Of a stretch of DNA of 64,000 bases, positions 1 to 51,534 are shown one piece after another. This DNA comes from Alphaproteobacteria bacterium (GTDB lineage: Bacteria; Pseudomonadota; Alphaproteobacteria; UBA7985). The stretch is from contig CAXQZM010000071.1 of assembly GCA_964228455.1 (NCBI GenBank), positions 13,310 to 77,309 on the forward strand. Direction: 5' to 3'. Position 1 is the first letter of the stretch. Each line of letters starts with the position of its first letter. The position numbers were made by a program, and so were the translations under genes. A model generated the notes under the pieces. It did not search any database. It worked only from the letters and a program-made list of their open reading frames with translations, and was not told where the DNA came from.

Positions 1-937
1 CAACTTGCAGGATTGCTGAAAGTGAAATTTCGGCACCCCAGGTATCTTGGATGGACATGGTTAGTCCTGACGAGGCGCAGAGGGCCCGTTGAGTTACGCA
101 GCGGGAAATCCCACCTTGTTTTCCAAGCTTGAGATTAATACCATCACAGGCCTCCAGCTGAATAGCTAGGCCAACATCGCCATCAGTTTGCGCCAACTCA
201 TCTAACATTATTGGATAGGGGCAAAAATCGCGCAGCAACAAGGTCTCACCCCAAGTTGCACAGGGGGCCTCTAATACGAAATTAAGATTCTCGGGCAACA
301 ATGCAAAAAGCTGCTTTGCTTGATCTAATGTTAGACTACCATTTGCATCAACCAGGAAAAAATCATCAGGTTGGCTATGGCGAAGAACGGTCGTTAGCCT
401 TTTGGCCTCCATTGAGGGTCCACCGGCGTTTAGTGCAGCGCCAATTTTAATCGAGTGGTGAGTGAAACCAAGATCAGAATGTCTTCTAACGGAATTAAGC
501 ATCTTTTCAGGGCTATCGCTACTAATTGAAGAAATACTTGGGACGTTGTCGCACATTAACCCACCAATTAGCTCATAGACCGGGGCACCCTCAGCCTTTC
601 CGGCAAGATCCCAAACTGCAATGTCTATTGCTGATTTTGCAGCCGCTTGCCCTGCTAAAACAGAGTCCATTTTTGCATAGACTGTACTGGGATCCCTGGG
701 ATCGAGTCCAAGCAAATTGGGAGATAATTCTATGATGGCGGCCAAAACCCCAGCTGGATGCCCTTCTATGTAAGTGCCTCCAAATGGACAAGACTCACCC
801 CAGCCTAATAAGCCTGTGTCCGTTTTCAAGCATACAATTGTTGTTTTAAACGAAGTAAATTCTCTACCACCAGACAGTTTATATACCCCCGGGTATGGAA
901 GATCTTTTTGAAAGACCTCTATACCGGTGATTTGCAC
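1..937 (-). CDS. Mandelate racemase/muconate-lactonizing-enzyme (enolase superfamily) protein. N-terminal ~312 aa are present and the C-terminus lies beyond the window start.
   Basis: Manual minus-strand translation from a GTG at 937..935, directly after the crotonase stop, gives VQITGIEVFQKDLPYPG...KIGAAL...FFLVDANGSLTLDQAK...FVLEAPCATW...IMLDELAQT...LKLGKQGGIS. The KxK, D-A-N, LEEP-like and D-E motifs are typical of MR/MLE barrel enzymes. It was not in the ORF track because it has a non-ATG start and runs off the edge. Confidence 0.6.
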   Translation of the reverse strand, partial: MQITGIEVFQKDLPYPGVYKLSGGREFTSFKTTIVCLKTDTGLLGWGESCPFGGTYIEGHPAGVLAAIIELSPNLLGLDPRDPSTVYAKMDSVLAGQAAAKSAIDIAVWDLAGKAEGAPVYELIGGLMCDNVPSISSISSDSPEKMLNSVRRHSDLGFTHHSIKIGAALNAGGPSMEAKRLTTVLRHSQPDDFFLVDANGSLTLDQAKQLFALLPENLNFVLEAPCATWGETLLLRDFCPYPIMLDELAQTDGDVGLAIQLEACDGINLKLGKQGGISRCVTQRALCASSGLTMSIQDTWGAEISLSAILQV

Positions 938-1720
938 TTAACGGCCTCTCCAAACTGGATCGCGCTTTTCCGCAAAAGCCTTGAATCCTTCTAAACCATC
1001 CTCGGAGTTGTATAGCTTATCAACCGTGGGAAGCTGAGATTTAGTTACTCGATTCATTGTATCTTGGAATCTTGCTCCTTCAGCCTCGCGAACGGTTTCC
1101 TTAATTGCCTGGAATACAAGCGGTGGTCCGCTTGCAAGGAGGTCAGCTACATCATTTACTTTAGCCTCTAAAGCCTGACCGTCAGATAGAGATTCGTTAA
1201 CAAGGCCCCATCGAACAGCCTCTTCACTGCTCATCCAGCGTCCAGTTAGAAGCATATCCATTGCAACATGGTAGGGAATTCGCTTCGGCAGCTTTATTGA
1301 CGCAGCGTCTGCTAAAGTACCAGCGCGAATTTCGGGCAATGCAAAGGTTGAAGCGCTGGTGCAGTATATTAAGTCGCAAGAGATCATGAGCTCAAAGCCT
1401 CCACCAACAGCCATCCCCTCTACCTGAGCGATAATGGGCTTATTCATGTCTCTTAATTCTTGAAGACCAGCAAAACCCCCAACTCCATAATCTCCAACTA
1501 CAGAATCCCCATTCGCCGCTGCTTTGAGGTCCCAACCAGCAGAAAAAAACTTTTCTCCGGCTGTTTTCACTATGCAAACTCGTGACGTTTGATCGTCGCG
1601 GAATGCCTTGAAGTGCTTACCCATTTCCTGGCTAGTAGAAAGCGCAATCGCATTAGCTTTTGGTCTATCCAGAGTAATTGTCCAGATTCCACCTCGCTTG
1701 GTTGTTGTGACTTCATTCAT
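938..1720 (-). CDS. caiD: Carnitinyl-CoA dehydratase-like enoyl-CoA hydratase (crotonase family, CaiD-type)
   Basis: 260 aa. Strong resemblance to E. coli CaiD along the whole length (ITLDRPKANAI, GEKFFSAGWDLKAAA, GGFAGL, GGGFEL, FAEKRDPVWRGR at the C-terminus). Crotonase-fold signature. Confidence 0.8.
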   Translation of the reverse strand: MNEVTTTKRGGIWTITLDRPKANAIALSTSQEMGKHFKAFRDDQTSRVCIVKTAGEKFFSAGWDLKAAANGDSVVGDYGVGGFAGLQELRDMNKPIIAQVEGMAVGGGFELMISCDLIYCTSASTFALPEIRAGTLADAASIKLPKRIPYHVAMDMLLTGRWMSSEEAVRWGLVNESLSDGQALEAKVNDVADLLASGPPLVFQAIKETVREAEGARFQDTMNRVTKSQLPTVDKLYNSEDGLEGFKAFAEKRDPVWRGR

Positions 1721-3681
1721 GAGGGCTCTCCTAAAATAAACATTGCGTCGGCGGCTATTGCATCGGCTGGTGTTGCAATAAGAGGGTTGATGTCTAACTC
1801 CAACACATCGCCACGCATAATTCGTGTCTGAACTGCCATGAGGGCTTGAATTATTGCTAAACGGTTGGCTGAAGGTCTGCCACGATACCCGTCTAGGATC
1901 TTTGAGATACGAAGCGAGTTTAAGGCCTCTTCTGCTTGGTTTTGATCAAAAGGCAGAAGTAAAATAGCACTATCCTCTATTAGCTCTGCCAGAATTCCGC
2001 CAGAGCCGATAAGCATGTGACCCCCTATTACAGGATCATGAGCTACTCCAACAATGAGTTCTGCGGTTACGTCTTGCACCATTTCTTCGACTAGAATTGT
2101 GTCAGAAATTTTTGATAACTTGGCAAACACACCGAGTGGGTCAGTCACGTTTAAGGAAACTCCGCCCACTTCAGACTTGTGAAAAAGATCAACGGAGACA
2201 GCTTTCATAACACAAGGTTTCTTTAGTTCAGTAATTTGATCTACTGATGAAACCAATTGCCCACTAGGAATGGAGATGCCATTGGAAGCTAGCTCTTGTT
2301 TGCTGTCGTATTCCGTCAAAGTGGTTAAGGGTTTCTGTGGTTTAGATAGGTATCGAAATTTCGTACCATGCTGTAGTGCCGCGGCATCAAGACCTTCGAG
2401 ACTTGCCTGCATGCCATGGAGTGGGACTATTCCAACCGAAACGAGCCGCTGCGATAGGTCTTCTGGCATATTTTCCGGGTAAGTAGCCATTATGCCCACC
2501 CGCGCATCTGAAGCACGCTTAGCATTAATTATACATTCTATCGCAAGCTCAAAGCTTTCAAGATTACCACTTGTTTTTCTAGGCCAGTCGAAAACAAAGA
2601 TTGTGAAATTTTGCGGACCTCGGAGCGCTTTAGTGAACGCTGGTGTAAGGGCCTCCGCATTACCCCACTCAAAAGTGTGATAATCAAATGGGTTAGATAC
2701 TTTTACTAACGGGTTAAGTGTTTCATCAATGCCTAAGCCATCCATTGATGGAAAGTTGAATCCATAACGGGCGCCAGCATCGGCCATTAAACTGGCCTCA
2801 CCGCCTGAGCAGGATATGCTGAGTAGATCTTTTCCTGTAATTTTACCTCCAAGATGCAGTATTTTGAGCCCCTCTAAAAAGCTTTCGAGTGAGCGAACAC
2901 GACCAATCCCGCACCGGTTTAGGAATGCGTCTGCAACACTGTCTGAACCTGAAAGTGAAGCCGTGTGAGAGACGGTTAAGGTTCGGGCTGCCTTTGTTTC
3001 ACCTGATTTAAGAGCGATAATCGGTTTTGAACAATCACGAGCAGCTTGGTGGAAGGAAGAAGGATCTCCAAAACCTTCAATATGTAACCCAATGGCTGTA
3101 ACCCGTGGGTCTTCATCCATAGCCGCAATAAGCTCGGACAAACCCAATTGCGCGCCGTTCCCTGCTGCCAGCATGTATGCAATTGGGAGGCCCCTTTGCT
3201 GCATGCTCATACTAATAAGAATATTCGAGGATTGTGTAATCAAGGCCACACCACTTTCGGCCTTATATCCTCCAAGTACGTCTGGCCACATCGCCACACC
3301 ATCTAAATAGTTCACCATTCCATAGCAATTTGGTCCCAGAATTGGCATTTCTCCTGCCGCCTCTAATAGTGTATCTTGTAAGTAAGCACCCTCTTCCCCA
3401 GCTTCTCCAAAACCTGATGCGAAGCATATTGCACCACCTGCACCAAACTGGGCCAATGAGCGTGTGATGTCTATGCTGGCATGACGATTTACTGCGACAA
3501 AAGCGGCATCGGGCGGATAAGGTAAATCAGTTATTTTCTTAAATTCTGATTTTGGGTTAACGTGCCAAACTGGGCCTTCAAAATTCCACTTTCTAATTTG
3601 GAATAAAACATTTTGCGTCCAAGCGCCCCCAACAATTGCAATAGACTTAGGATGGAGAAGACGTTCAAGTTTCATTGTCAC
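1717..3681 (-). CDS. ADP-forming (NDP-forming) acyl-CoA synthetase, fused CoA-binding/succinyl-CoA-synthetase-like alpha and ATP-grasp beta domains
   Basis: 654 aa. N-terminal KSIAIVGG CoA-binding/Rossmann domain, CoA-ligase domain, C-terminal ATP-grasp. Shares a 4-bp overlap with caiD (operon). Confidence 0.7.
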   Translation of the reverse strand: MTMKLERLLHPKSIAIVGGAWTQNVLFQIRKWNFEGPVWHVNPKSEFKKITDLPYPPDAAFVAVNRHASIDITRSLAQFGAGGAICFASGFGEAGEEGAYLQDTLLEAAGEMPILGPNCYGMVNYLDGVAMWPDVLGGYKAESGVALITQSSNILISMSMQQRGLPIAYMLAAGNGAQLGLSELIAAMDEDPRVTAIGLHIEGFGDPSSFHQAARDCSKPIIALKSGETKAARTLTVSHTASLSGSDSVADAFLNRCGIGRVRSLESFLEGLKILHLGGKITGKDLLSISCSGGEASLMADAGARYGFNFPSMDGLGIDETLNPLVKVSNPFDYHTFEWGNAEALTPAFTKALRGPQNFTIFVFDWPRKTSGNLESFELAIECIINAKRASDARVGIMATYPENMPEDLSQRLVSVGIVPLHGMQASLEGLDAAALQHGTKFRYLSKPQKPLTTLTEYDSKQELASNGISIPSGQLVSSVDQITELKKPCVMKAVSVDLFHKSEVGGVSLNVTDPLGVFAKLSKISDTILVEEMVQDVTAELIVGVAHDPVIGGHMLIGSGGILAELIEDSAILLLPFDQNQAEEALNSLRISKILDGYRGRPSANRLAIIQALMAVQTRIMRGDVLELDINPLIATPADAIAADAMFILGEPS

Positions 3682-4838
3682 GCGCCAAGAGGACGAAGCA
3701 AGTCTCGGCTTATGATGTGCCGCTGTATCTCAGATGTTCCATCCCAAATCCTCTCTACTCTTGCGTCGCGCCAGAATCGAGCAAGAGGTAAGTCATCCAT
3801 CAGGCCCATGCCTCCGTATATAGCGATTGCTTCATCGGTAACTCGTGACAACATTTCTGATGCGTATAACTTAGCACTAGCTATTTCACGGTTACTTAAA
3901 ATGTTTTGATCTAGCTGCCAAGCGGCTTTCAAAGTTAATAGATCAGCTGCATCTATTTCAGTGATCATATCAGCGAGCTTGAAGCTAACGCCTTGGAACT
4001 TTGAAATTTGCTGACCAAATTGTTTTCTTTCCGCGCTGTATTGAAGTGCGTAATTGAAAGCACGACGCGCGCGGCCAACACTCATAGCGGCAACGGTAAG
4101 TCGCGTGCCATATAACCATTCATTCATCACGGTAAAACCTCCACCTACCTCGCCTAGAACTTGCCCTGGTCCCAGTATGCAATTATCAAACGTTAAGATA
4201 TTATTGGGGTAGCCGCGATGGGAAACAGAGGAATAGCCGGGCTTAATTTCAAAACCGGATGTTCCTCTATCAACCAAGAAACATGTTATGATTTTTTTTG
4301 GCCCTCGGGCTGTTTGCTCTTCACCTGTTGCCACGAAAACTATTACAAAGTCTGCGTGTTCCGCCCCTGAAATAAAATGCTTGGAACCATTTAAAACCCA
4401 GTCGTTTCCTCGTTTCTCTGCTCGGCACTTCATGCCTCGAACATCGGAACCTGCATCCGGCTCAGTCATGGCCAATGCGTCCCAGCGTTCCCCCCTGATT
4501 GCGGGCTTTAAGTAAGTTTCAATTTGGTCACCCTGACAAGCCATTAGTATGCCTTGTGGCCTACCCCAAAAGTGAGTGAGTGCCATTGAACCGCGGCCAA
4601 GCTCTCGCTCTAAAAGAGTAAATTCAAGATGACTTAAACCTCCACCACCAACACTTTCAGGGAAATTTGGTGCGAAAAAACCGATCTCTTGAACCTTTTT
4701 GGCTATTTGCCGTCCCATCTCAATTGGAACGCACCCCAGTCTTTCAACTTCATCTTCTAACGGATAAATTTCAGTTTCGACGAAGGTTCGAACCGTATCC
4801 ACAATCATTTCTTGTTCAGATGTGAGCCCAAAAAACAT
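3678..4838 (-). CDS. Acyl-CoA dehydrogenase family protein
   Basis: 386 aa. ACAD N/M/C domains (TEPDAGSD, GGMG..., catalytic-Glu-containing C-terminal helical domain). Translationally coupled to the upstream synthetase. Confidence 0.8.
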   Translation of the reverse strand: MFFGLTSEQEMIVDTVRTFVETEIYPLEDEVERLGCVPIEMGRQIAKKVQEIGFFAPNFPESVGGGGLSHLEFTLLERELGRGSMALTHFWGRPQGILMACQGDQIETYLKPAIRGERWDALAMTEPDAGSDVRGMKCRAEKRGNDWVLNGSKHFISGAEHADFVIVFVATGEEQTARGPKKIITCFLVDRGTSGFEIKPGYSSVSHRGYPNNILTFDNCILGPGQVLGEVGGGFTVMNEWLYGTRLTVAAMSVGRARRAFNYALQYSAERKQFGQQISKFQGVSFKLADMITEIDAADLLTLKAAWQLDQNILSNREIASAKLYASEMLSRVTDEAIAIYGGMGLMDDLPLARFWRDARVERIWDGTSEIQRHIISRDLLRPLGA

Positions 4839-4926
4839 GAAGCCTCCCCAAGAGTAAATAATTTGAGGCTATGCCCCTCTGTACCGCCAAAATCGCAGAT
4901 GTTTGGCAGGCGTTAGTTTATGAAAT

Positions 4927-4942
4927 GGGCCCGCGGGCCCAA
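4927..4942 (-). terminator. GC-rich palindrome (GGGCCCGCGGGCCC) downstream of the BKACE gene. Possible transcription terminator or processing hairpin.
   Basis: Perfect 14-bp GC palindrome read directly in the sequence. The flanking T-run is weak on both strands. Confidence 0.3.
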
Positions 4943-5018
4943 CCCATAAAATAACGGCTCTAAATGATGAGCGATGTTCTTTTGTAGATCTAAGTTATCT
5001 TAAAGAGACTCTCCATAA

Positions 5019-5909
5019 TTAGCTCTGACGAAGTTTAAGCTTTTCTCTAACTTCTTTAGGCCCAATAATTTTTACGTTCATAGCTTCTAGAATTGTTACC
5101 GCACGTTCAACTAGATCACCGTTTGAGGCAAGGACGCCTTTTTCTAAATAGATATTATCTTCCAAGCCCACCCTAACATTCCCCCCGGCTAGAACAGCAG
5201 CAGCCACGTAGGGTAATTGAAGTCGACCGATTGAAAACGCTGAGAAGATCCAACTTTCTGGAACATTATTGACCATGGCCATTAGCGTGGTCATGTCAGG
5301 CGGCGCCCCCCAGGGCACGCCCATGCAAAGCTGAACCATCACTGGATCTTCGATTAACCCCTCGTTAACGAGTTGCTTGGCAAACCATAGGTGGCCAGTG
5401 TCAAATGCTTCGATTTCTGGGCGCACTCCTAAGGCGGTCATACGGGAGGCCATGTCACGGAGCATGGCTGGGGTGTTTGTCATGATGTAGTCACCCTCAC
5501 CAAAGTTCATAGTGCCGCAATCAAGGGTACATATTTCAGGCAAGGAGTCTTTGATATGCTGAACGCGAGCCTCCGCGCTTGCCATATCTGTTCCTTCATG
5601 ATTCAGCGGAAGAGGCGAAGAGGTTGGCCCGAGAGTTAGGTCACCTCCAGTGCCGGCCGTTAGATTAATTACCACATCAGTATCAGCGTCCCGAATACGA
5701 TCAACCACCTCTTTATACATTTGCAGGTCTCTTGATTGGCCGCCGGTATCAGGATCTCTAACGTGACAATGAGCAATCGCTGCGCCAGCCTTTGCTGCTT
5801 CAATTGCAGCAGCTGCAATTTCCTTAGGTGTAATTGGAACCTTGTGTGATTTCTGGGTAGTGGCACCCCCTCCGGTAACTGCAGCAGTGATGAAAACTTC
5901 ATAGTTCAT
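5019..5909 (-). CDS. 3-keto-5-aminohexanoate cleavage enzyme family (BKACE/DUF849) beta-keto-acid cleavage enzyme
   Basis: 296 aa. TIM-barrel BKACE hallmarks (ITAAVTGG N-terminus, HxH-type metal site, GLED motif). Confidence 0.75.
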   Translation of the reverse strand: MNYEVFITAAVTGGGATTQKSHKVPITPKEIAAAAIEAAKAGAAIAHCHVRDPDTGGQSRDLQMYKEVVDRIRDADTDVVINLTAGTGGDLTLGPTSSPLPLNHEGTDMASAEARVQHIKDSLPEICTLDCGTMNFGEGDYIMTNTPAMLRDMASRMTALGVRPEIEAFDTGHLWFAKQLVNEGLIEDPVMVQLCMGVPWGAPPDMTTLMAMVNNVPESWIFSAFSIGRLQLPYVAAAVLAGGNVRVGLEDNIYLEKGVLASNGDLVERAVTILEAMNVKIIGPKEVREKLKLRQS

Positions 5910-5948
5910 GGAGATGCTCCTTACTTAGGTGGTGATGGTCGGTTTAAT

Positions 5949-7157
5949 TTAGTGATTTTCGGCTCGAGACTTAAATACGACCCATGGACCAAAAATGGCG
6001 ACAAGGGCAGCGACAGGGACTATAGAGGCATAAGCCCAACGGAAGCCATAAAAATGTTCCAGAAAGCCGATTAGGGGAGGTCCAATAAAGATTGAAGCCC
6101 AGCCCATTGCAGACACTATAGCAACCCCGAAGGCCGGTCTCACACCATTTAAGCGTCCAGCCGACGCAACAAAGATTGGGAAAAAAAATGAGAAACCAAA
6201 CCCCATAAAGAATACAGCGACGACTCCTTCCCAGTATTTATGAGTGATGATGAGCCAGAGAAGCCCGGCCATGCCAATCAATGTGCCAAAAAGGAGCAGT
6301 TTGGGACGCCCAATCTGTTCCGCTATCCCATCTCCCAGTAAGCGCGCTATTAGCAGCCCTGAAGAAAAAAGAACCATTGGTAGAACGAACCAATGGGCAT
6401 CTAGATTTTGTCCTTTTAGCTTAAATTCAGAGAAAAAGTATTGGCTGAGCCAGTCATAGTGAGATGCTTCTGCTTCAATACCCAGAAGCATCAACAAGCA
6501 TAGTCCTATGAGCAAGTTTCGTGAGAGTTTAGGCAGCTTTCCCCCACTTGCTTTAAGCGCCTCTTCATCGGAAGCAGCCTCAATTGAGAAGGACAAAAAA
6601 TCACGTCGAATGAAAAAGAGAAGCGTCGAAGACGCCAAGCTTATCAATAAAAAGAATAACCAAATCGGCATCCCGAAATATAATGAAATAAACGCGAGAA
6701 GTGTTCCTGATAAAACACCAGCTGCAAACATTGCATGAACGCCAGTCATAAAAAATCGATTTGTTACCCTCTCCAATAAACTACCTTGAGAGTTTGCCGC
6801 AACGTCGAAGAAGCCGGTGCAGATGCCGAGGCAAAAGCCTATCGAGAGAAGAGCACCATAGTTGGGTGCTAAAATGTACAGTACAGGGAATGCTAAAAAA
6901 AGTGGCAGAAATATAGAGGATAATAACTTGCTACCAAAACGTCCGATGAGGAAACTGCCTCCAATAAGTGAAGGAACTGCGCCAAAAGCCATGCTTAATA
7001 AGAAGAAGGTAACATGCCATTCTTCCAAATCCAGCCGGCCCATAAGAGTGGGGAATTGTGCAAGCATTGTAGGAACTGTTAAGCCGAGAACAAAGAAGCC
7101 AGCTGCTATCGCTCGAAAAGTTCTTTTAATTTGCTGCTCTGTTAAGGCGTGTCCCAT
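5949..7157 (-). CDS. MFS transporter
   Basis: 402 aa, ~12 predicted hydrophobic helices, typical MFS architecture. Confidence 0.7.
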   Translation of the reverse strand: MGHALTEQQIKRTFRAIAAGFFVLGLTVPTMLAQFPTLMGRLDLEEWHVTFFLLSMAFGAVPSLIGGSFLIGRFGSKLLSSIFLPLFLAFPVLYILAPNYGALLSIGFCLGICTGFFDVAANSQGSLLERVTNRFFMTGVHAMFAAGVLSGTLLAFISLYFGMPIWLFFLLISLASSTLLFFIRRDFLSFSIEAASDEEALKASGGKLPKLSRNLLIGLCLLMLLGIEAEASHYDWLSQYFFSEFKLKGQNLDAHWFVLPMVLFSSGLLIARLLGDGIAEQIGRPKLLLFGTLIGMAGLLWLIITHKYWEGVVAVFFMGFGFSFFFPIFVASAGRLNGVRPAFGVAIVSAMGWASIFIGPPLIGFLEHFYGFRWAYASIVPVAALVAIFGPWVVFKSRAENH

Positions 7158-13779: not shown

Positions 13780-14802
13780 ATGTATTTTGCTTCTGACAAT
13801 ACAGCTGGCGCTCATCCGGATGTTCTGAAAGCTCTGGTTAAGGTAAATTCAGGCTTCGTTGGCGCATACGGAGACGACCCAATAACGGCGGCACTCCAAG
13901 ATCGATTGCGAGCCATATTCGAGCATGATGAGCTAATAGCCTTTCCAATCGCAACCGGATCCTCTGGAAACGCGCTTGCGTTGGCGACAATGACCCCTGG
14001 ATGGGGAGCAGTATACTGCCACGGCGAGGCCCACATCAACGTTGACGAATGCGGCGCTCCCGAAGTAGCAAATCCTGGAAGCAAGTTGGTGCCACTCGAT
14101 GGGGTCAATGGGAAATTTACAGCTGATTCCGTTATGAGTTCAATGCGGGGCAGAGATTTTGTACACGCGGTTCAGCCATCAACTATATCAGTTACCAATC
14201 TCACCGAGGTTGGCAGTGCGTATACTGTCGAGGAATTGCAAGATCTTGGCGAATTTTGCCGAAAAGAAAAGCTATCATTTCACATGGACGGGGCACGTTT
14301 TGCAAATGCCTTGGTTTCAACCAATGCAAGCCCGGCTGACTTAACGTGGAGAGCGGGAGTTGATGTTTTGACATTTGGGGCAACCAAAAATGGCTGCATG
14401 GCCGCTGAGGCGGTTATATTCTTCGACCCTGATAGAGCTCAGGAGTTTGCATTTCGACGTAAGCGAGCAGGTCATTTATTTTCTAAAATGAGATTTTTAA
14501 GCGGGCAATTAATAGGATACATTGAAAATGATCTATGGCTCCAAACGGCGCGTCATGCGAATGCTATGGCTGCAAAACTTGCGCGCGGGCTTGTTGCAGC
14601 AGGGTATCGCCCATATTTTCCCGTCGAGGGAAATATGGTTTTTGCACCTATTCCAGAAGTTGTGCAGAAAAAACTCAAGGACCATGGAGCACTGTTCTAT
14701 CCTGGTCGCTTAGGCGGAACAGATGGAACCGATGTTCGGCTTTTGTGTTCTTGGTCAACAACACAGGCGGAAGTCGACAAGTTTGTAGGGCTTTTAGGTT
14801 AG
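13780..14802 (+). CDS. ltaE: Low-specificity L-threonine aldolase (PLP-dependent, beta-eliminating-lyase fold)
   Basis: 340 aa. N-terminus FASDNTAGAHPDVL, PLP lysine region (TFGATKNG). GGGAG RBS upstream. Confidence 0.8.
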   Translation: MYFASDNTAGAHPDVLKALVKVNSGFVGAYGDDPITAALQDRLRAIFEHDELIAFPIATGSSGNALALATMTPGWGAVYCHGEAHINVDECGAPEVANPGSKLVPLDGVNGKFTADSVMSSMRGRDFVHAVQPSTISVTNLTEVGSAYTVEELQDLGEFCRKEKLSFHMDGARFANALVSTNASPADLTWRAGVDVLTFGATKNGCMAAEAVIFFDPDRAQEFAFRRKRAGHLFSKMRFLSGQLIGYIENDLWLQTARHANAMAAKLARGLVAAGYRPYFPVEGNMVFAPIPEVVQKKLKDHGALFYPGRLGGTDGTDVRLLCSWSTTQAEVDKFVGLLG

Positions 14803-15954
14803 GCGAGCTTCTACAAGCTTAGCCCAATAAGCAACACCGTATGGAATAGCTTTATCATTAAAGTCGTATTCAGGGTGATGTAGGCCTGCTGTGTCTCCGT
14901 TACCCATGAAGATGTAGGCCCCTGGCTTTTCTTCTAGCATGTAGGCAAAGTCTTCTCCGCCCATTAAGGGCTCACAGGATCTCTCCACCTGTTGTTCACC
15001 AACAACTGTCGCCGCAACATCCGCAGCAATTTTTGTTTCGGTTGAGTGATTAACGGTTACTGGATAATTACGAGTAAAGGCTACAGTCGCCTTGCCTCCA
15101 TATGTGCTAGCAACACCCCGGGCAATTTCACCAAGCCGAGTCTCCATCTGATCTCTAACGTTTGGATCTAATGTTCTCACTGTTCCGCTGATTATGGCGC
15201 TATCAGGAATGACGTTGTTAGCCGTTCCAGCATGAAATTGTGTCACAGAGAGGACCGCTTGAGCTAGTGGGTCTAGCTCTCGACTGACTAATCCTTGTAG
15301 CGCCTGTATCATTAGGCTGCCCATATAGATTGGGTCAGCAGATTGGTGAGGTAGTGCTGCATGCCCTCCTCTGCCGTTTATCTCGATATTGAAGTTATCT
15401 GGGCTACCCATGATGCCACCTGGCCGGATAGAAAATTGTCCCACAGGAAGGCCCGGGAGATTATGCATTCCATAGACTTCATCGCACGGAAATTTTTCAA
15501 ACAAACCATCCTTGATCATAGCTTTAGCTCCTGCACCACCCTCCTCAGCAGGTTGAAATATGAGGTAGACGGTTCCATCAAAATTTCGAGTGTCAGTAAG
15601 ATGTTTGGCAGCACCTAGTAACATGGCTGTATGTCCATCATGTCCGCAAGCATGCATTCGACCAGGGTGCTGAGATTTGTAATTGTGTTCCCGTGACTCT
15701 GAGATGGGCAAGCCGTCCATATCAGCTCGTAGACCGATTGATTTTTCTCCAGGGGTTTTCCCTTTTATAACTGCGACGACCCCAGTCTTTCCAAGACCTT
15801 CATGGATTTCATCTACCCCGATATCGCGAAGCGTCTTAGAAACAAACGCGCTAGTTTTAGTTTCTTCATAACAAAGCTCTGGGATCTGGTGCAGCTGCTG
15901 CCGCCAACCGGAGACGATAGGGTGATCTGCTTGGATTGAATTAGACAACGTCAT
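14794..15954 (-). CDS. M20-family amidohydrolase (hippurate hydrolase / N-acyl-L-amino-acid amidohydrolase-like)
   Basis: 386 aa. M20D signatures (HACGHDGH, metal-binding Glu/His positions). Confidence 0.8.
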   Translation of the reverse strand: MTLSNSIQADHPIVSGWRQQLHQIPELCYEETKTSAFVSKTLRDIGVDEIHEGLGKTGVVAVIKGKTPGEKSIGLRADMDGLPISESREHNYKSQHPGRMHACGHDGHTAMLLGAAKHLTDTRNFDGTVYLIFQPAEEGGAGAKAMIKDGLFEKFPCDEVYGMHNLPGLPVGQFSIRPGGIMGSPDNFNIEINGRGGHAALPHQSADPIYMGSLMIQALQGLVSRELDPLAQAVLSVTQFHAGTANNVIPDSAIISGTVRTLDPNVRDQMETRLGEIARGVASTYGGKATVAFTRNYPVTVNHSTETKIAADVAATVVGEQQVERSCEPLMGGEDFAYMLEEKPGAYIFMGNGDTAGLHHPEYDFNDKAIPYGVAYWAKLVEARLT

Positions 15955-20993: not shown

Positions 20994-21986
20994 TTATCCT
21001 AAAGCTTTTTGATTAAGCGTTTCTTTAAATTTATTTAGAGCTTTGCCGCTGCCCATGTCATGTTTTGCGAGCACGCGTTGGATCGCTACCATACACTCAT
21101 CTCGTATAGCTTCTAACTCTCTCACAGTTTTGCCGTTTGCTTGAGCTTCTGTACCATCTGCAAATCGATCAATGATCGTATCTGTTAACTCCGGAGCCTT
21201 TAGGTGTGTCCATGGCAATTCAAGTGCTGGTCCAAACTGCTTAATAAAGTGCCTGGCGCCGCCTTCTCCACCTCCCAACATGTATATTTGGTTCATTCCC
21301 ATTATAGCCCATCTCAAGCCTGGCCCATAGACAATTGACTCATCTAGCTCACCAGTTGTTGCAATATCATCGTTTAAGGCGTGTAGGATTTCACGCCACA
21401 TTGCTTCTTGGAGACGATCTGAAATATGCCCTGGGACTTCTCGCTTTACCATCAAAGCGTGCATTCCAATCGACTCATAGAACTCTCTTGCCAGTAGTTT
21501 TGATTGTTCAGCGGTCTGAGCGCCCCCAACGATTTCAACTAACGGACAGAGATAGACTGGATTGAAAGGGTGTCCGACAAGGATGCGCTCCGGGTGCGTC
21601 ATTCCTTTTTGCAACTCCGATGGCATAAAACCGGATGTAGAGGAGGAAATTATTACATTCGCGGGGCTGATGGTAGTGAGCTGATTAAGGGCTTTACGCT
21701 TGGTTTCTAAAACTTCTGGAACATTTTCCTGAATAAAGTCAGCGCACGCCGCAAGCTCACCCAGATCATCTGTGAACTTAAGCCTCCCTTTAGGCGGAAG
21801 CTTCATGCCTTCTGTCAATTTACTCAGCCCACGCGCAGCTACCTCAAGGCTCCTCATCAGGACATCTTCCATTTCTGGGTTAATGTCATAAGCTACGACA
21901 TCATAACCCCCATGAAGTGCTCGGGCCGCCCAACCACCGCCGATGACACCAGTTCCAAGTAGGCCAAAGGATTTGATTTTAGACAT
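20994..21986 (-). CDS. L-carnitine dehydrogenase-like 3-hydroxyacyl-CoA dehydrogenase family protein
   Basis: 330 aa. GTGVIGGGWAARAL Rossmann N-terminus, HPERxLVGHPFNPVYLxPLVEIVGG and FGPALELPWT..APELT blocks closely matching characterised L-carnitine dehydrogenases. Confidence 0.65.
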   Translation of the reverse strand: MSKIKSFGLLGTGVIGGGWAARALHGGYDVVAYDINPEMEDVLMRSLEVAARGLSKLTEGMKLPPKGRLKFTDDLGELAACADFIQENVPEVLETKRKALNQLTTISPANVIISSSTSGFMPSELQKGMTHPERILVGHPFNPVYLCPLVEIVGGAQTAEQSKLLAREFYESIGMHALMVKREVPGHISDRLQEAMWREILHALNDDIATTGELDESIVYGPGLRWAIMGMNQIYMLGGGEGGARHFIKQFGPALELPWTHLKAPELTDTIIDRFADGTEAQANGKTVRELEAIRDECMVAIQRVLAKHDMGSGKALNKFKETLNQKALG

Positions 21987-22003
21987 AAATAAAGCTCTCT
22001 AAT

Positions 22004-22561
22004 TTATGGGTTCAGTATTCGATCAGCTACATCGCCTAGCGTGATTGCGCAGCCTGGTAAGGCCTCCTGCCAATCTCTGCTAGCGGCTTCGTCCGCGCAA
22101 TCTGTAACGTATTTAACAGCCCCAAATGGAACCGAGAAAGCGTTACATACCTTTGCTAAAGCAAAGGCTTCCATTTCTACCACCGATGGCCCTGTGGGAA
22201 GTAGGAGTGGGTCATCTAAAAACTGGTCATTTGTATAGCATGGCGCGTCAACTAGGCCATTAATTTGAATGTCATAGGTAGAATCTATTTGCGCTGGGAC
22301 ATTATCAAATGGCGTTTGACCTCTCCTAAAATCTAGACCCTCACATCGCATATCCCACTGGTTAAAATTAGTAGCACGAACCAAACTACCCTTTGGCAGA
22401 CCGACACCACCGGCTGATCCAAGATTAATTACAGCAGGTGGGTTTGGATTTTCTGCAAGAAAACGCGTTAGTGTTAAGGCGGCGTTTATCTTGCCCACTC
22501 CGGTAACTAGGGTATCGTAGCCCTGCAATTCGCCGGCCAACGCACATACAATGAGGACCAT
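22004..22561 (-). CDS. Short nucleoside-phosphorylase-family (PNP_UDP_1 / MTA-SAH nucleosidase-like) protein
   Basis: 185 aa. VEMEAFALAKVC resembles the MtnN catalytic-region motif. Shorter than canonical MTA nucleosidases. Confidence 0.5.
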   Translation of the reverse strand: MVLIVCALAGELQGYDTLVTGVGKINAALTLTRFLAENPNPPAVINLGSAGGVGLPKGSLVRATNFNQWDMRCEGLDFRRGQTPFDNVPAQIDSTYDIQINGLVDAPCYTNDQFLDDPLLLPTGPSVVEMEAFALAKVCNAFSVPFGAVKYVTDCADEAASRDWQEALPGCAITLGDVADRILNP

Positions 22562-22625
22562 TTCCCCCCCCTCATAAAAATTGCTTCAACCTTAGTCGGC
22601 TTTGATACCTACAGAATTTCTGGCT

Positions 22626-23000
22626 CTAGTTTTGTTGCTCATCCAGTACGTTTCTAGCATGGCGGAAGCATTCTAGTGCCTGTGGCACGCCACAGTATAT
22701 CCCAATAACGTGTATTGAAGCCCGAATTTCATCTTTGGTAACCCCATTATTTATTGCTCCACGCAAATGAAGTTCAAACTCATGCATTTTTCCAAGTGCA
22801 CCAAGCATTGAGAGGTTCATTAGGCTCCGAGTCTTCGGATTAAGAGCGTCGTCACCCCATCCAAAGCCCCAGCACCAAGCTGTCATCGCCTCTTGGAACG
22901 GTCGAGTAAAGTCATCAGCTGCTGCAAGGTTTTTATCTACATAGTCTTCGCCAAGGGTGGCTTTGCGTCGCTCTAGGCCAACGTCGAATTGTTTGTTCAT
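22626..23000 (-). CDS. Carboxymuconolactone decarboxylase (AhpD-like) family protein
   Basis: 124 aa. CMD-family helical fold motifs (HxxxA...GVTKDEI). Confidence 0.65.
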   Translation of the reverse strand: MNKQFDVGLERRKATLGEDYVDKNLAAADDFTRPFQEAMTAWCWGFGWGDDALNPKTRSLMNLSMLGALGKMHEFELHLRGAINNGVTKDEIRASIHVIGIYCGVPQALECFRHARNVLDEQQN

Positions 23001-23029
23001 GGCCGGTCTCCTTTTGGTTCTGTCTTACC

Positions 23030-23770
23030 TCAGCTTGAATTAAGCATCATTACAACTGGCTTATGGTCACTATAACCATTGAGGCCTAGTGGTCTAGTTG
23101 GCAGTAAAGACCAATCTTTAGGAGCCAGAATGTGATCAATCTCGCGCCTCATTACTGGTGCAATGTCAACATCCGCCGCTAGCTTTAACTTGGCTAGAAC
23201 AGTGTCACGAGCCTGACTTAGCACACGGTTGAAGTCCCCCATTAAGATTATGGGCAGACTTTGTATCTGCATCCATTCACAAAGCAAAGTAACTTGCAAA
23301 TCAAGAATTTTGCACGGTGCTCGCTTGTCTAGCCTCAGTTTGTCTCTGCAGCCAGATTTGAGGTGAAGACCTACCACAAGGAAACGGTCCTCCACACAAA
23401 GCACCACTGCGTCTCTTGCATAGTCATCGGCTCCGCTGACTTCAGAGAGCTTTAGATCAGGCAGCTGACGCACTAATAAGTTTGGTGCAATGGCGAAACC
23501 AACCCCGTGTTTTCTTTTATTGGCGGGCAATTCTGCATTTAGCCTGTATTCAGTGTAGTGTTGTCTGTTGGGACAAAGGTATTCTAAGCCCGATGTTCCC
23601 CCGATTTCTTGCAAGCACAATATATCTGCGTTCAATGACGTTACAGCATCCTTGGTTCTTTTAATCAGCCTCTCGTCACGGAGACGGCTTCTCTCCCCGT
23701 TCTTCCGGATAAGAAGTGGCTCATTTTGCTTGTGCCAAAAATGTTCAAGATTCCACGTTGCTAGTATCAC
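23030..23770 (-). CDS. Endonuclease/exonuclease/phosphatase (EEP) family protein
   Basis: 246 aa. N-terminal TWNLEHF and DILCLQE motifs of EEP hydrolases, C-terminal SDHKPV. Confidence 0.65.
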   Translation of the reverse strand: MILATWNLEHFWHKQNEPLLIRKNGERSRLRDERLIKRTKDAVTSLNADILCLQEIGGTSGLEYLCPNRQHYTEYRLNAELPANKRKHGVGFAIAPNLLVRQLPDLKLSEVSGADDYARDAVVLCVEDRFLVVGLHLKSGCRDKLRLDKRAPCKILDLQVTLLCEWMQIQSLPIILMGDFNRVLSQARDTVLAKLKLAADVDIAPVMRREIDHILAPKDWSLLPTRPLGLNGYSDHKPVVMMLNSS

Positions 23771-48032: not shown

Positions 48033-48110
48033 TTGCATGCGTTTGCAAAAAGCACTTGATCGAGATAGAAAATCTTGTAGGATACCTTCTTGGTTGCAAG
48101 CGTATGCAAA
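48033..48110 (+). promoter_or_regulatory. Two copies of a LacI-type operator-like inverted repeat (TTGCA-N6-TGCAA, CG-centred) upstream of the ABC transporter operon
   Basis: 48033..48050 TTTGCATGCGTTTGCAAA and 48094..48110 TTGCAAGCGTATGCAAA. Each is an imperfect palindrome of the TTGCA half-site. They lie ~60 bp apart and 30-100 bp upstream of ATG 48138. Confidence 0.4.
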
Positions 48111-48137
48111 TTGTGTGCGTTATGTTTGGGGGTATGC

Positions 48138-49199
48138 ATGGCGGAAATTGAGCTCCGTAATTTGTCCAAGCGTTGGGGGTCCTTTGTCGGCGTCCACGAA
48201 TTTGACCTGACCATTGCTGACAAAGAATTCCTTGTTCTTCTTGGTCCGTCAGGTTGTGGCAAAACCACTACTATGAGAATGATTGCTGGTTTGGAGCCAA
48301 TCAGTGAAGGCGACATTGTTGTAGATGGGAGGCGCATCAACGACTTGGCCCCAAAAGATCGGGACGTTGCAATGGTGTTCCAGTCTTACGGTCTCTACCC
48401 TAATATGAGTGTCAGGGAAAACATTAGGTTCCCGTTGAAAGTCCGAAAGGTGCCTAAGAACGAGCATGAGGCGCGCGTCAACAAAGCCGCTGCTATGGTC
48501 GAATTGGAGCCGTTCATGGACCGTAAGCCAGCAGCACTTTCGGGAGGGCAACGCCAGCGCGTGGCACTCGCTCGCGCCATTGTGCGGGAGCCTAATGTGT
48601 TTCTAATGGATGAGCCTTTATCAAACCTTGATGCAAAGCTAAGGGTATCCACTCGCGCGCAGATTAAAAATCTCCAACACGAACTAAAAGTTACTACTAT
48701 TTACGTAACTCATGACCAGGTCGAAGCTATGACGTTAGCCGATCGTGTTGTAGTTATGAATAAAGGAAGAATTCAACAAGTAGGCACCCCGACTGAGATT
48801 TATGATAATCCCGCCAACACTTTCGTCGCCAGCTTCATTGGATCGCCGGCAATGAACCTAGTTCCGGGAAAGATGTCAAAAGGCGTTTTTGAGGCAGAAG
48901 GCCTAAAAGTTAAAGGGTTAAAGGGCAGTGATGGCAGCACGGTACTTGGATTTCGTGCGGAGGACGTAGCCCTCACGAGGAAAGCGGCTCAGTTAAAAGC
49001 TGCAGTTTACTCATTTGAATTATTGGGCGACGCGACCATGATCACAGTCAAGATTGGAAGCGGTTCGGACGCCGCAATGGTTAGCGTCAAGGCCCCTAAA
49101 GAATATCGAACGACCATTGGCGAGCAAGTCAATGTGTCGATCGATCCAAAGCTGTGTCATCTGTTCGATGCATCAACAGGGACCAGACAGGACAGTTGA
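48138..49199 (+). CDS. ABC transporter ATP-binding protein (CUT1 family, MalK/UgpC-like)
   Basis: Start at ATG 48138 (MAEIELRNLSKRWG). Walker A GPSGCGKTT, LSGGQRQRVALARA, Walker B FLMDEPLSNLD, C-terminal TOBE/regulatory domain. Confidence 0.85.
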   Translation: MAEIELRNLSKRWGSFVGVHEFDLTIADKEFLVLLGPSGCGKTTTMRMIAGLEPISEGDIVVDGRRINDLAPKDRDVAMVFQSYGLYPNMSVRENIRFPLKVRKVPKNEHEARVNKAAAMVELEPFMDRKPAALSGGQRQRVALARAIVREPNVFLMDEPLSNLDAKLRVSTRAQIKNLQHELKVTTIYVTHDQVEAMTLADRVVVMNKGRIQQVGTPTEIYDNPANTFVASFIGSPAMNLVPGKMSKGVFEAEGLKVKGLKGSDGSTVLGFRAEDVALTRKAAQLKAAVYSFELLGDATMITVKIGSGSDAAMVSVKAPKEYRTTIGEQVNVSIDPKLCHLFDASTGTRQDS

Positions 49200-49234
49200 T
49201 ACTGTTCTGTAGCACAAACCTTAAGGAGGATCAT

Positions 49235-50425
49235 ATGATCAAAAAACTAACTTTGGCAGCAAGCGTTTCAGCGCTAGCGACTTCCGCGGCTTTTGCCGGT
49301 GGCCATTGTAATGGCTCGGGCATCTCGTCTCTGTCTGCGGCGTTTCCTGCTGTAGAAGCTCTACAGGATCAAATGGAAGCTTGTGGCGCAACCACGGAGC
49401 GTGACCAAGAGCACAAAGATAAAATTAACCCGGCATTAGAGGCATCTCCAGCAGCATATAACGCTGTTCTAGGAGCAAACTCTACATTTACGGCCGCTAA
49501 TTCAGCTGGGCTCGTTGCCGCAATTACAGACGTCCCCGGCGTTTCTGATTTGCCAGTTTCTATGAAAGTGGAGCAGGATGGTGAAGTTGTGGCAATTGCT
49601 ACTATGGCGAATGCTCAGCACTTAATGGTGCGCCAAGACGTGCTTGATGCAACCGGCATGGCTATGCCAACAACATATGAAGAAGTCGTTGCCTTGGCCT
49701 CGAAAGCGCAAGAGATGGGCTTGATGGAGTATCCATTGACCGGCACGTATGCGGCTGGCTGGAACTTAGGTGAAGAGTTCATGAACATGTGGCAAGGTAC
49801 AGGCGAGCCAATGTTCGTTAATGGCACTGAATCTAACATTAACAATGCTGCAGGTATTGCTACTTTGGAGATGATGAAGGCCTTGACGGATCTCATGAAC
49901 CCCGAATTCTTAACTTTCAACTCAGACATCGTTCAGGCCCAGTTTGAACAGGGCGAGGCTGGCATAGCTAACCTATGGGGGACTCGTGCACAGAAGGTGA
50001 TTGATGGTGTTGGCGCTCTTGGTGCTGATGTTGTTATGGGCGGCGCGCCTACTTTCGGCGGAGGTTCAACTCCAGCGACTACTATTTGGTGGGATGGTTT
50101 CTTCTTCGCTGCAAATCAGTCTGATGAAGAGCTGGCAGCCGCTGTTGATACGGCAATTCATGCGGCAGCCTCTGTATTGAGTGTTGATGGAAATGCCGAA
50201 CTGGCAGTTTGGGTTATCGACGGATATGAGCCTACTCCAGCTGCGGCAGGCGTCTTCGCATCAGCCGCTGCGGGCGCAAATCCTTATCCAATGCTACCGC
50301 ATGTTGGTGCTATGCATACCGCTGCGGGCGCTGAGTTAGCGGATTTCTTATCTGGAAACGAGTCTGCAGCGCAGGCCTTAGCGGATATTGAAGCTGCCTA
50401 TAACGCAGCAATGGCAGAAAATTAA
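49235..50425 (+). CDS. ABC transporter substrate-binding protein (extracellular solute-binding family 1)
   Basis: AAGGAGGA RBS, then ATG 49235. Signal peptide (MIKKLTLAASVSALATSAAFA). SBP_bac_1-type length. Confidence 0.75.
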   Translation: MIKKLTLAASVSALATSAAFAGGHCNGSGISSLSAAFPAVEALQDQMEACGATTERDQEHKDKINPALEASPAAYNAVLGANSTFTAANSAGLVAAITDVPGVSDLPVSMKVEQDGEVVAIATMANAQHLMVRQDVLDATGMAMPTTYEEVVALASKAQEMGLMEYPLTGTYAAGWNLGEEFMNMWQGTGEPMFVNGTESNINNAAGIATLEMMKALTDLMNPEFLTFNSDIVQAQFEQGEAGIANLWGTRAQKVIDGVGALGADVVMGGAPTFGGGSTPATTIWWDGFFFAANQSDEELAAAVDTAIHAAASVLSVDGNAELAVWVIDGYEPTPAAAGVFASAAAGANPYPMLPHVGAMHTAAGAELADFLSGNESAAQALADIEAAYNAAMAEN

Positions 50426-50431
50426 TAATGC

Positions 50432-50470
50432 GGGGTGGCGGTTGTCGCCACCCCACTTTACCTTTTTTCT
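50432..50470 (+). terminator. Intra-operon stem-loop/attenuator downstream of the substrate-binding-protein gene
   Basis: GGGGTGGCG-GTTGT-CGCCACCCC perfect 9-bp stem followed by ...CCTTTTTTCTT. Typical position for a partial terminator that raises SBP:permease mRNA stoichiometry. Confidence 0.6.
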
Positions 50471-50529
50471 TAGCGGATCGGTACTGAGCTCCGCTTGGCA
50501 AGATGGGAAGCTACTAAGAGCTAAATAAA

Positions 50530-51534
50530 ATGCCACATCGTACGTTTTTATGGTTTGTCTTGCCCTCAGTGGCCACCATGGTGCTTTTTATTTTGTTGCC
50601 ATTGGTAAATGTAGCGTACCAGTCCTTTTTCTCCGAACCTACACCAATACAGAGGGTAGTAGAGGTTTGCTCAACTAACTTTTTTACTGGTGAGAAGACT
50701 TGCACGGAGTCTTTCACTTATGAGGAGGTAGAGGGCCCGAATATATTTCGGGGTTTAGACTTCATTTGTGGATACTCAGTGCTAGCATGTAAAGAGCTAT
50801 CCGAAGGTGCTAAACTAATGAATCTCCCGTTTTATCGGGCTTTGGCATTTACTTTATTTTATACATTTATCACCACGCCATTCATCATCGTTCTAGGGCT
50901 GATGATTGCCAGTCTTGTCAATAATCTGACGCGGTCAGTTCGCGGCCCTATCATCTTTGCAAGTCTATTACCCTTTATTGTTACCCCTCTCGTTGGCTCT
51001 TTGGTATTATTTTGGATGACCGGAAATAACGGCGGATTGCTCTACAGTTTAGTTAACGGGCTAATGTTTTGGACTGATGTTGATATTTCCCTCCGAGCTT
51101 CTGCAACCGCTGTCTGGGCGATGCTGGCCACTTATGGAGTTTGGCACGTAGCGCCGTTCGCGTTCATTGTGTTTTACGCTGGCCTGCAGACGGTTAGTCA
51201 GGACCAAATTGAAGCTGCAATGGTAGATGGTGCCAGTGTGTGGGAAAGGTTTCGACATGTTGTTGTTCCACATCTGATGCCCCTGATCACATTTGTACTT
51301 TTGATTCATATCATGGATGCATTTCGAGTGTTGGAGCCCATTGTTAGCTTTCAAGCGCAATCTAAAGCTCAGTCTTTGTCCACGTTGATTTACGAACACT
51401 TGGTTATTCAGCAAGAGAAGCGTTACGGAACAGCCGCTGCGACATCACTTCTGACCATTTTGATGGTATTCATCCTTCTTCTTCCCGTTTTGGTCAGAAC
51501 TTGGCGCGATTTTCGGGGGGATGGGCGATTATGA
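50530..51534 (+). CDS. ABC transporter permease (MalF/UgpA-like)
   Basis: 334 aa. Six TM helices with EAA-type loop (binding-protein-dependent transport signature). Confidence 0.8.
   Translation: MPHRTFLWFVLPSVATMVLFILLPLVNVAYQSFFSEPTPIQRVVEVCSTNFFTGEKTCTESFTYEEVEGPNIFRGLDFICGYSVLACKELSEGAKLMNLPFYRALAFTLFYTFITTPFIIVLGLMIASLVNNLTRSVRGPIIFASLLPFIVTPLVGSLVLFWMTGNNGGLLYSLVNGLMFWTDVDISLRASATAVWAMLATYGVWHVAPFAFIVFYAGLQTVSQDQIEAAMVDGASVWERFRHVVVPHLMPLITFVLLIHIMDAFRVLEPIVSFQAQSKAQSLSTLIYEHLVIQQEKRYGTAAATSLLTILMVFILLLPVLVRTWRDFRGDGRL

Follow-up and report, generated by a model that had tools for sequence, protein, structure and literature searches.

A probable lineage-specific variant of the alphaproteobacterial bco/cdh operon for gamma-butyrobetaine and carnitine, with an accessory MR/MLE gene

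The operon and its relation to the bco/cdh cluster

The DNA analysed here is a stretch of 64,000 nucleotides (the window, which means the whole of this stretch) on contig CAXQZM010000071.1 of an uncultured marine alphaproteobacterium, and its positions 1-7157 were found to contain six genes, every one on the minus strand and each confirmed in its family by Pfam. In the order of transcription, they encode an MFS transporter, an enzyme for beta-keto-acid cleavage (BKACE), an acyl-CoA dehydrogenase (ACAD), an acyl-CoA synthetase (ACS), a crotonase (ECH) that is taken as the hydratase of the pathway, and, as the last gene, an MR/MLE enzyme of the enolase superfamily (Table 1). From sequence comparison, the locus is probably a lineage-specific variant of the bco/cdh pathway for gamma-butyrobetaine and carnitine that is known from Alphaproteobacteria, and the MR/MLE gene would be an accessory in it. 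What is new is the architecture, which is without the carnitine dehydrogenase-thioesterase fusion and contains an MFS importer together with an accessory enzyme of the 2PCE family. The nearest relatives of the hydratase were found to be of the SAR116/Puniceispirillaceae type.

Table 1. Features of the operon and the stand-alone dehydrogenase-like gene, with positions in the window
Feature	Position	Strand	Details
MFS transporter, first gene of the operon	5949..7157	-	402 aa; Pfam MFS_1, 56 bits
BKACE	5019..5909	-	296 aa; Pfam BKACE, 334 bits
BKACE-ACAD spacer, 180 nt	4839..5018	-	contains the palindrome GGGCCCGCGGGCCC at 4927-4940
Acyl-CoA dehydrogenase (ACAD)	3678..4838	-	386 aa; four ACAD Pfam domains
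Fused alpha+beta ADP-forming-type (ACD family) acyl-CoA synthetase (ACS)	1717..3681	-	654 aa; CoA_binding_2 (weak), Succ_CoA_lig, ATP-grasp_5
CaiD-like crotonase (ECH), crotonobetainyl-CoA hydratase/carnitinyl-CoA dehydratase	938..1720	-	260 aa; ECH_1, 187 bits
MR/MLE gene, MLE subgroup, 2PCE family	1..937	-	312 of 374 codons in the window; MR_MLE_N + MR_MLE_C
Stand-alone carnitine-dehydrogenase-like gene (CDH-like)	20994..21986	-	330 aa; 3HCDH_N + 3HCDH; without a thioesterase domain

The ACAD, ACS, ECH and MR/MLE genes were found to be closely packed, with 4-nt overlaps at both the ACAD/ACS and the ACS/ECH junctions. At the TAAGTG junction the stop codon TAA of ECH (940-938) is immediately followed by the start codon GTG of MR/MLE (937-935), so that these two genes abut and do not overlap, as an earlier note made from this sequence alone had stated they did. 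The sequence GGAGAGG was found 7 nt upstream of the GTG codon. The MR/MLE gene is clipped by the edge of the window, and its full protein was represented by P0001 (374 amino acids, 99% identical), which is encoded as the final operon gene on L001, a near-identical contig of a metagenome-assembled genome (MAG), followed by the presence of convergent genes for a pterin-4a-carbinolamine dehydratase and a malic enzyme. The six-gene arrangement is not due to chance, because the core and its order recur in related loci and the six-gene form recurs in L001 and in the contig L002.

A tblastn search of the synthetase against plasmids led to a cluster of Rhizobium leguminosarum (L008, plasmid NZ_CP018232.1). 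Its annotation was found to contain a GlxA regulator, BKACE (as a 3-keto-5-aminohexanoate cleavage protein), carnitine 3-dehydrogenase and acyl-CoA dehydrogenase, followed by an acetate--CoA ligase family protein, a carnitinyl-CoA dehydratase and an ABC transporter. The same four enzyme families were found in the same order (BKACE...ACAD-ACS-ECH) in the window and in the bco/cdh cluster of Rhizobium/Sinorhizobium, and the window proteins were 70% (BKACE), 72% (ACAD), 44% (synthetase) and 63% (hydratase) identical to those of the Rhizobium cluster. These four orthologues in the bco/cdh order bear out the assignment of the operon to the gamma-butyrobetaine/carnitine type in the earlier note. The bco/cdh cluster contains the dehydrogenase-thioesterase gene between BKACE and ACAD whereas the window contains the 180-nt spacer at this place. 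The rhizobial clusters contain an ABC transport system whereas the window operon contains the MFS gene, and MR/MLE, with which the window operon ends, is absent from the bco/cdh cluster.

A reference set of 80 loci was obtained by scanning the ACAD alignment against one genome per species, and these loci came from Sinorhizobium/Ensifer, Shinella, Rhizobium, Neorhizobium, Mycoplana, Rhodobacteraceae and SAR116/Puniceispirillaceae. The carnitine dehydrogenase-thioesterase gene was found immediately upstream of ACAD in all 80 (in one of them a 2.4-kb contig exposes just the thioesterase end), and BKACE, synthetase and hydratase were found in the canonical order wherever the contig reaches. The window ACAD was 75-79% identical to the ACADs of these loci, the window BKACE was 64-74% identical to the BKACE detected in 79 of them, and the window hydratase was 72-77% identical to the SAR116 loci. 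In the S. fredii and SAR116 examples, Pfam found the canonical dehydrogenase to be a fusion of 3HCDH with a 4HBT_2 thioesterase and the canonical synthetase to have the ACD architecture. No homologue of the MFS protein or of MR/MLE was found in any of the 80 canonical loci.

The study of Bazire et al. 2019 is said to have assigned, in S. meliloti/HK4, the BcoA/B ligase, the BcoC dehydrogenase, the BcoD hydratase, the carnitine dehydrogenase-thioesterase and the cleavage of dehydrocarnitine by BKACE. BcoAB of S. meliloti has served as the gamma-butyrobetaine:CoA ligase that forms gamma-butyrobetainyl-CoA from gamma-butyrobetaine, ATP and CoA in the presence of Mg (PMC8364193), and a passage of PMC12482172 that cites Bazire et al. 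2019 gives the S. meliloti dehydrogenase both carnitine oxidation and betainyl-CoA hydrolysis. The gamma-butyrobetaine/carnitine pathway traces back to the industrial strain HK4 (PMC2131755). The locus had been described as an unconventional, undescribed route on account of its ADP-forming synthetase. This claim fails because the BcoAB-type bco/cdh route is known and only the E. coli cai and the Pseudomonas cdh/dhc systems had been compared; such a synthetase is part of the standard cluster in Rhizobium, Sinorhizobium/Ensifer, Shinella, SAR116 and Rhodobacteraceae.

The chemistry of the E. coli caiTABCDE operon also proceeds through CoA esters of gamma-butyrobetaine, crotonobetaine and carnitine, and both operons encode a CaiD-like hydratase together with a CaiA-like flavoprotein. 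In contrast, the CaiB CoA-transferase, the CaiC AMP-forming ligase and the CaiT antiporter have no counterparts among the six window genes, in which Pfam detected no CoA_transf_3, AMP-binding or BCCT domain. The direction of the window operon would be oxidative, towards carnitine and glycine betaine, whereas that of the E. coli cai operon is reductive.

Among the individual enzymes, the best NCBIfam match of the hydratase was NF002936, crotonobetainyl-CoA hydratase, with 274 bits (under the cut-off of 500 bits), and the identical MAG protein is named carnitinyl-CoA dehydratase by NCBI; together with the identity to the Rhizobium carnitinyl-CoA dehydratase, this supports its description as CaiD-like in the earlier note. 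BKACE is, from its sequence, the orthologue of the enzyme adjoining carnitine 3-dehydrogenase in rhizobia, and the carnitine-type activity proposed for it is predicted by this orthology. ACAD is likewise the orthologue of the bco-cluster dehydrogenase and is predicted to convert gamma-butyrobetainyl-CoA to crotonobetainyl-CoA; it was found to contain the motif DGTSEIQ, which is taken here to be the site of the catalytic Glu. The MFS protein, the presumed importer of the substrate, is kept in the same position in the related contigs L002 (65% identical) and L175 (62% identical), and its plasmid homologues were found to be merely distant and YbjJ-like (26-29% identical).

The synthetase was found to contain the domains of the ADP-forming (ACD) type and the phosphohistidine loop SHTAS, which agrees with its earlier assignment. 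Over its full length, its identity to the synthetases in the clusters of Rhizobium, S. fredii (43%) and SAR116 was 40-44%, and the canonical cluster synthetases were mutually 46-47% identical between orders. The divergence of the window synthetase is therefore normal for the family, because the canonical ones differ equally from each other, and it was rejected as a mark of a new function. The match of the synthetase to DddX (7CM9) gave 148 bits, to 3-hydroxypropionate-CoA ligase 170 bits and to 4-hydroxybutyrate-CoA ligase 155 bits. An assignment as a DddX-like dimethylsulfoniopropionate (DMSP) lyase was also rejected, since DddX is not the nearest ACD protein and the flanking genes are carnitine-cluster orthologues.

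The canonical slot between BKACE and ACAD was found to contain no carnitine dehydrogenase-thioesterase gene in the window, and the whole 64 kb gave no match to the thioesterase domain. A stand-alone CDH-like gene was found as the last gene of a minus-strand group (20994-23770), after genes for an endonuclease/exonuclease/phosphatase-family protein, a 4-carboxymuconolactone-decarboxylase-like (CMD) protein and a nucleosidase-like protein. The CDH-like protein and the dehydrogenase part of the Rhizobium carnitine dehydrogenase shared 45.6% identity. Its best NCBIfam match was carnitine 3-dehydrogenase (368 bits, cut-off 592, with 332 of 495 positions matched), followed by L-carnitine dehydrogenase (340.7 bits, cut-off 414) and the next family at 187 bits. 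In L175, neighbouring CMD (84% identical) and CDH-like (76% identical) genes were found at 13893-15735, merely 3 kb downstream of its bco-type operon. The CDH-like gene is thus a conserved candidate for the oxidation step, as the source of 3-dehydrocarnitine for BKACE.

The BKACE-ACAD spacer was found to contain a perfect 14-nt GC palindrome that is single-copy in the window, although its significance is doubtful, as at least one match was present in 17 of 100 shuffles; it may represent a site for a regulator or the scar of a deletion. Promoter and terminator scans of the spacer gave no excess over chance, and in L002 and L175 the BKACE-ACAD junction was just 4-6 nt.

A common frame of rbfA and MFS-BKACE-ACAD-ACS-ECH was found in four lineages, namely the window, L002/L003, L172 and L175. 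The full six-gene form was found in L001 and L002 as well as in the window, and the contigs L003 and L172 were found to contain the ECH-MR/MLE end. The hydratase was 88% identical to that of the window in L002/L003, where the synthetase is split across two genes, 89% in L172 and 83% in L175. MR/MLE directly follows the hydratase gene in three of the four variant lineages (the window, L002 and L172). The fourth, L175, is a 965-kb contig with the same dehydrogenase-less operon, in which MR/MLE is absent and the genes of ATP synthase come next; the dehydrogenase-less design is therefore independent of MR/MLE. Just past MR/MLE, convergent genes for carboxylesterase-like alpha/beta-hydrolases (Abhydrolase_3, BD-FAE) were found in L002 (11127-12032 and 13343-14200) and in L172 (2463-3389). 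These genes, which the window lineage lacks, may encode an acylcarnitine esterase or a thioesterase.

The MR/MLE protein and the loci of its relatives

The catalytic set of the MR/MLE protein was found to be complete, with the lysines K164 (in HSIKIG) and K270 and the metal ligands D197, E223 and D246. Against the PDB, the full-length P0001 matched 2PCE/3FV9 of Roseovarius nubinhibens with 362 bits and 2PS2 of Aspergillus oryzae with 308 bits, followed by 4MGG (222 bits), the cis-3-hydroxy-L-proline dehydratase of Labrenzia aggregata, which is the closest characterised enzyme, and the HpbD structures 4E8G (183 bits) and 2PMQ (178 bits). The remaining scores were taken from the 312-residue fragment of the window, which gave about 65 bits to the true muconate cycloisomerases (1MUC/1BKH), 229 bits to NF043002 (cis-3-hydroxyproline dehydratase, cut-off 500) and 77 bits to TIGR02534 (muconate/chloromuconate cycloisomerase, cut-off 335). 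An assignment as muconate cycloisomerase is not supported by the score of about 65 bits, compared with 328-362 bits to 2PCE, or by the match to TIGR02534, which lies under the cut-off. The earlier note would have been refuted by loss of the catalytic pair together with clustering among muconate cycloisomerases. Instead, the lysine pair and all three metal ligands are kept, and the scores to 2PCE (362 bits) and HpbD (183 bits) are far above that to muconate cycloisomerases. The score to NF043002 gives no support to a cis-3-hydroxyproline dehydratase equivalog either, although for a truncated fragment such a shortfall would not by itself be decisive. From its sequence, the protein belongs, with its catalytic residues intact, to the uncharacterised 2PCE family, beside HpbD and cis-3-hydroxyproline dehydratase.

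In a neighbour-joining tree, P0001-P0005 were found to form a small clade that is sister to the large 2PCE/2PS2 family. The motifs YxLSGGRE, WGES.PFG, ISSI, HSIKIG and DAN, followed by LEAPC, LDEL, LK..KQGG, QDT.G and ALDTR, were nearly the same in the window clade and in 2PCE. The fixed differences of the window clade from the 2PCE family include T50C and G268N, and V300W is near-fixed. The 4MGG dehydratase is a beta-eliminating enzyme of the same cluster, whereas its own pocket motifs YRAIS, FQLKVG and ATDFN differ.

HpbD is a 4-hydroxyproline betaine 2-epimerase and proline betaine racemase. It belongs to the same subgroup, and its Lys164/Lys266 and Asp194/Glu219/Asp242 were found to align with K164/K270 and D197/E223/D246 of MR/MLE. 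In contrast, the betaine-binding Asp293 of P. denitrificans HpbD is replaced by Gln297 in MR/MLE and the active-site Trp by Leu325 (in ALDTR), and both Gln297 and Leu325 were invariant in the clade of the window and in 2PCE. The HpbD binding residues are named in PMC3950512, where the Trp is printed as Trp312; by count in the 4E8G alignment it is residue 321. An assignment of MR/MLE as an HpbD orthologue was ruled out by these replaced betaine-binding residues.

The search for the surroundings of more distant homologues gave 84 loci (35-52% identical), and a metagenome scan yielded nothing above 52% among the matches listed, a scope that applies to all counts over these loci. No bco or cdh gene was found in any of the 84. 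The most frequent neighbour, in 38-42 of them, was an MDR/quinone-oxidoreductase-like gene that often overlaps the MR/MLE gene (for example L174, 7910-10125) and is read as zinc-free because GAD stands in place of the usual GHE motif. This pairing resembles hpbD-hpbM of P. denitrificans, and neither the window operon nor L001, L002 or L172 contained the MDR partner. The other recurrent neighbours, labelled by eye from cluster representatives only, were HpbD-like paralogues, dimethylglycine (DMG)-dehydrogenase-like, dihydrodipicolinate-synthase-like, aldehyde dehydrogenase, ProV and creatinase-like genes. On Leisingera plasmids the order LysR - Rieske alpha - aldehyde dehydrogenase - MDR - MR/MLE was found, which parallels hpbR-hpbB1-hpbC1-hpbD-hpbM of P. 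denitrificans.

Within the clade of the window, P0004 (57-60% identical; L170, 6983-8406) was found to have no adjacent bco genes and to overlap a small Mpo1-like (DUF962) gene instead of a hydratase gene. The wider neighbourhood of the P0004 lineage (truB, rpsO, pnp) resembles that of the window. In L004 (8274-14050), from the Rhodobacteraceae MAG contig WKFI01000011.1, four MR/MLE paralogues were found to be interleaved with two cupin 'DMSP_lyase' (PF16867) genes, and this island is flanked by genes for an MDR alcohol-dehydrogenase-family protein, a DMG-dehydrogenase-like protein, a Rieske oxygenase, an aminotransferase and a GntR regulator.

Proposed pathway and alternative explanations

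Overall, gamma-butyrobetaine, and probably also crotonobetaine, would be converted through L-carnitine to glycine betaine and acetoacetate. The betaine would be imported by the MFS protein, followed by the formation of gamma-butyrobetainyl-CoA by the synthetase, as its homology to BcoAB suggests. ACAD would then oxidise gamma-butyrobetainyl-CoA to crotonobetainyl-CoA and the CaiD-like hydratase would convert the latter to L-carnitinyl-CoA, both steps being predicted by orthology. As the thioesterase domain is lacking here, the release of L-carnitine from CoA would need a reversal of the synthetase or an unlinked thioesterase; the reversal, which the earlier note had suggested and which is energetically attractive, gains some appeal from the same absence. 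The stand-alone CDH-like enzyme, encoded 14 kb off, would make 3-dehydrocarnitine, and BKACE, again by orthology, would cleave it with acetyl-CoA to betainyl-CoA and acetoacetate.

In a Mg-dependent reaction, the MR/MLE enzyme would remove the alpha proton of a free carboxylate, leading to epimerisation or beta-elimination. It acts most likely on the same small zwitterion as its 2PCE-family relatives and not on carnitine itself, because its pocket motifs match those of relatives in proline-betaine-type catabolic islands. The gene is read as an accessory because it is absent from the L175 operon and because none of the 84 homologue loci contained carnitine genes. The earlier note had proposed a D/L-carnitine or betaine racemase as plausible. 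Members of the enolase superfamily take the proton from the carbon alpha to the carboxylate and the stereocentre of carnitine is C3, so that direct racemisation of carnitine would not be feasible on chemical grounds, and the idea would be workable solely by dehydration and rehydration through crotonobetaine; the replaced Asp293 and Trp of HpbD and the absence of the gene from L175 also speak against it.

Several observations weigh against the bco/cdh variant with an accessory MR/MLE. Neither a thioesterase nor a CoA-transferase was found in the 64-kb window, which leaves both CoA-release steps without an enzyme, and the CDH-like gene lies under both NCBIfam cut-offs at a distance of 14 kb from the operon. 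The zero-nt ECH/MR/MLE junction is kept in three lineages despite a divergence down to about 60% identity, and this argues for a functional tie of MR/MLE to the pathway that the accessory role leaves unexplained.

Such a tie is the basis of the alternative in which MR/MLE acts inside the pathway, by abstraction of the C2 proton and elimination of the C3 substituent from D-carnitine or a 3-substituted gamma-butyrobetaine (such as an O-acylcarnitine), to give crotonobetaine. This is considered possible, although unlikely, and the same standing is given to its consequence that the synthetase and the hydratase would turn crotonobetaine into L-carnitinyl-CoA, making a 'carnitine racemase' by dehydration and rehydration. 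The junction, with its good ribosome-binding site and its retention in three lineages, and the tight packing of ACAD-ACS-ECH-MLE favour it, as does the beta-hydroxy eliminating activity of the nearest characterised relative, 4MGG. In menaquinone synthesis, OSBS-MenE-MenB form a series of an MLE-subgroup dehydratase, a CoA ligase and a crotonase, which offers an analogy. Homologues of MR/MLE were found in catabolic islands for betaines that also encode BCCT or ProV transporters, and the searchable literature yielded no dedicated carnitine racemase gene; the literature searches also found nothing that links the enolase superfamily to carnitine. However, L175 contains the same operon without MR/MLE, P0004 of the same clade lacks adjoining bco genes, and the 84 more distant loci, among the matches listed, are equally devoid of bco and cdh genes. 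The pocket motifs are moreover the same as in the unlinked relatives, and the residues that hold the quaternary ammonium in HpbD are replaced by Gln297 and Leu325. D-carnitine is also said in a review not to be a natural metabolite (PMC2131755). A bolder combination, in which the thioesterase is dispensed with, the synthetase reversibly frees L-carnitine and glycine betaine with recovery of ATP, and MR/MLE, which would be the first assigned member of 2PCE, makes crotonobetaine from D-carnitine or 3-O-substituted carnitines by CoA-independent beta-elimination, is regarded as improbable.

A different substrate for the whole operon is a still weaker candidate, and it seems very unlikely that the operon acts on another onium acid, either a dimethylsulfonio acid, with a DddX-like synthetase, or a longer omega-trimethylammonio acid. 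The low identity of the synthetase to the canonical ones (just 40-44%), its resemblance to DddX of 148 bits, the MFS importer in place of the ABC systems of the rhizobial clusters, and the cupin DMSP-lyase-like genes that adjoin some MR/MLE relatives are in keeping with such a substrate. On the other side, ACAD, BKACE and the hydratase were 63-79% identical to those of clusters that contain carnitine dehydrogenase, the canonical synthetases are as divergent among themselves (46-47%), and DddX is not the closest ACD protein. It is hardly credible that MR/MLE makes up for the loss of the carnitine dehydrogenase-thioesterase and that the six genes would thereby reach the BKACE substrate by a new route of their own that is self-sufficient. 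The loss of the dehydrogenase-thioesterase and the presence of MR/MLE do coincide in the window, L002 and L172, and all 80 canonical loci contain the former and none the latter. Yet L175 was found to be without both, which largely refutes MR/MLE as a replacement of the dehydrogenase-thioesterase; enolase-superfamily chemistry cannot oxidise an alcohol or hydrolyse a thioester, and a conserved stand-alone CDH-like gene is present in the window and in L175.

Carnitine and gamma-butyrobetaine are common nitrogen-rich osmolytes, and their turnover in the sea feeds the pools of glycine betaine and methylamine. On the reading as a bco/cdh variant, uncultured marine Alphaproteobacteria related to SAR116 would run the CoA-dependent route of rhizobia in a pared-down form, without the dehydrogenase-thioesterase fusion, and the locus poses the energetic question whether the release of CoA is coupled to the recovery of ATP by an ADP-forming synthetase. 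The locus is also one of few pathway-linked contexts for the 2PCE/2PS2 family of the enolase superfamily, and a substrate for the 2PCE-family MR/MLE, if found, would give an annotation to hundreds of genes of marine, soil and fungal origin.

Other features of the window

The GC skew was found to be negative at 1-8 kb, followed by mostly positive values across the window and again by negative values at 20-24 kb. The minimum of the cumulative GC skew was near 8 kb and coincided with a flip of gene orientation. The genes gidB, parA and parB were found at 18.7-20.9 kb of the window, and a chromosomal replication origin may lie near the operon.

A separate, unrelated cluster was found on the plus strand at 48090-61950, and it contained a sugar-type ABC transporter (an ATPase, SBP_bac_1 and two permeases) together with a histidinol-dehydrogenase-family protein, a LacI regulator, an SDR protein, a bicupin, a Meth_synt_2-like protein and an RraA-like aldolase. 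SnoaL-like domains were found in three further proteins of this cluster, each of about 345 amino acids and two of them with two matched stretches, and the cluster was followed by the presence of a gene for a TauE exporter.

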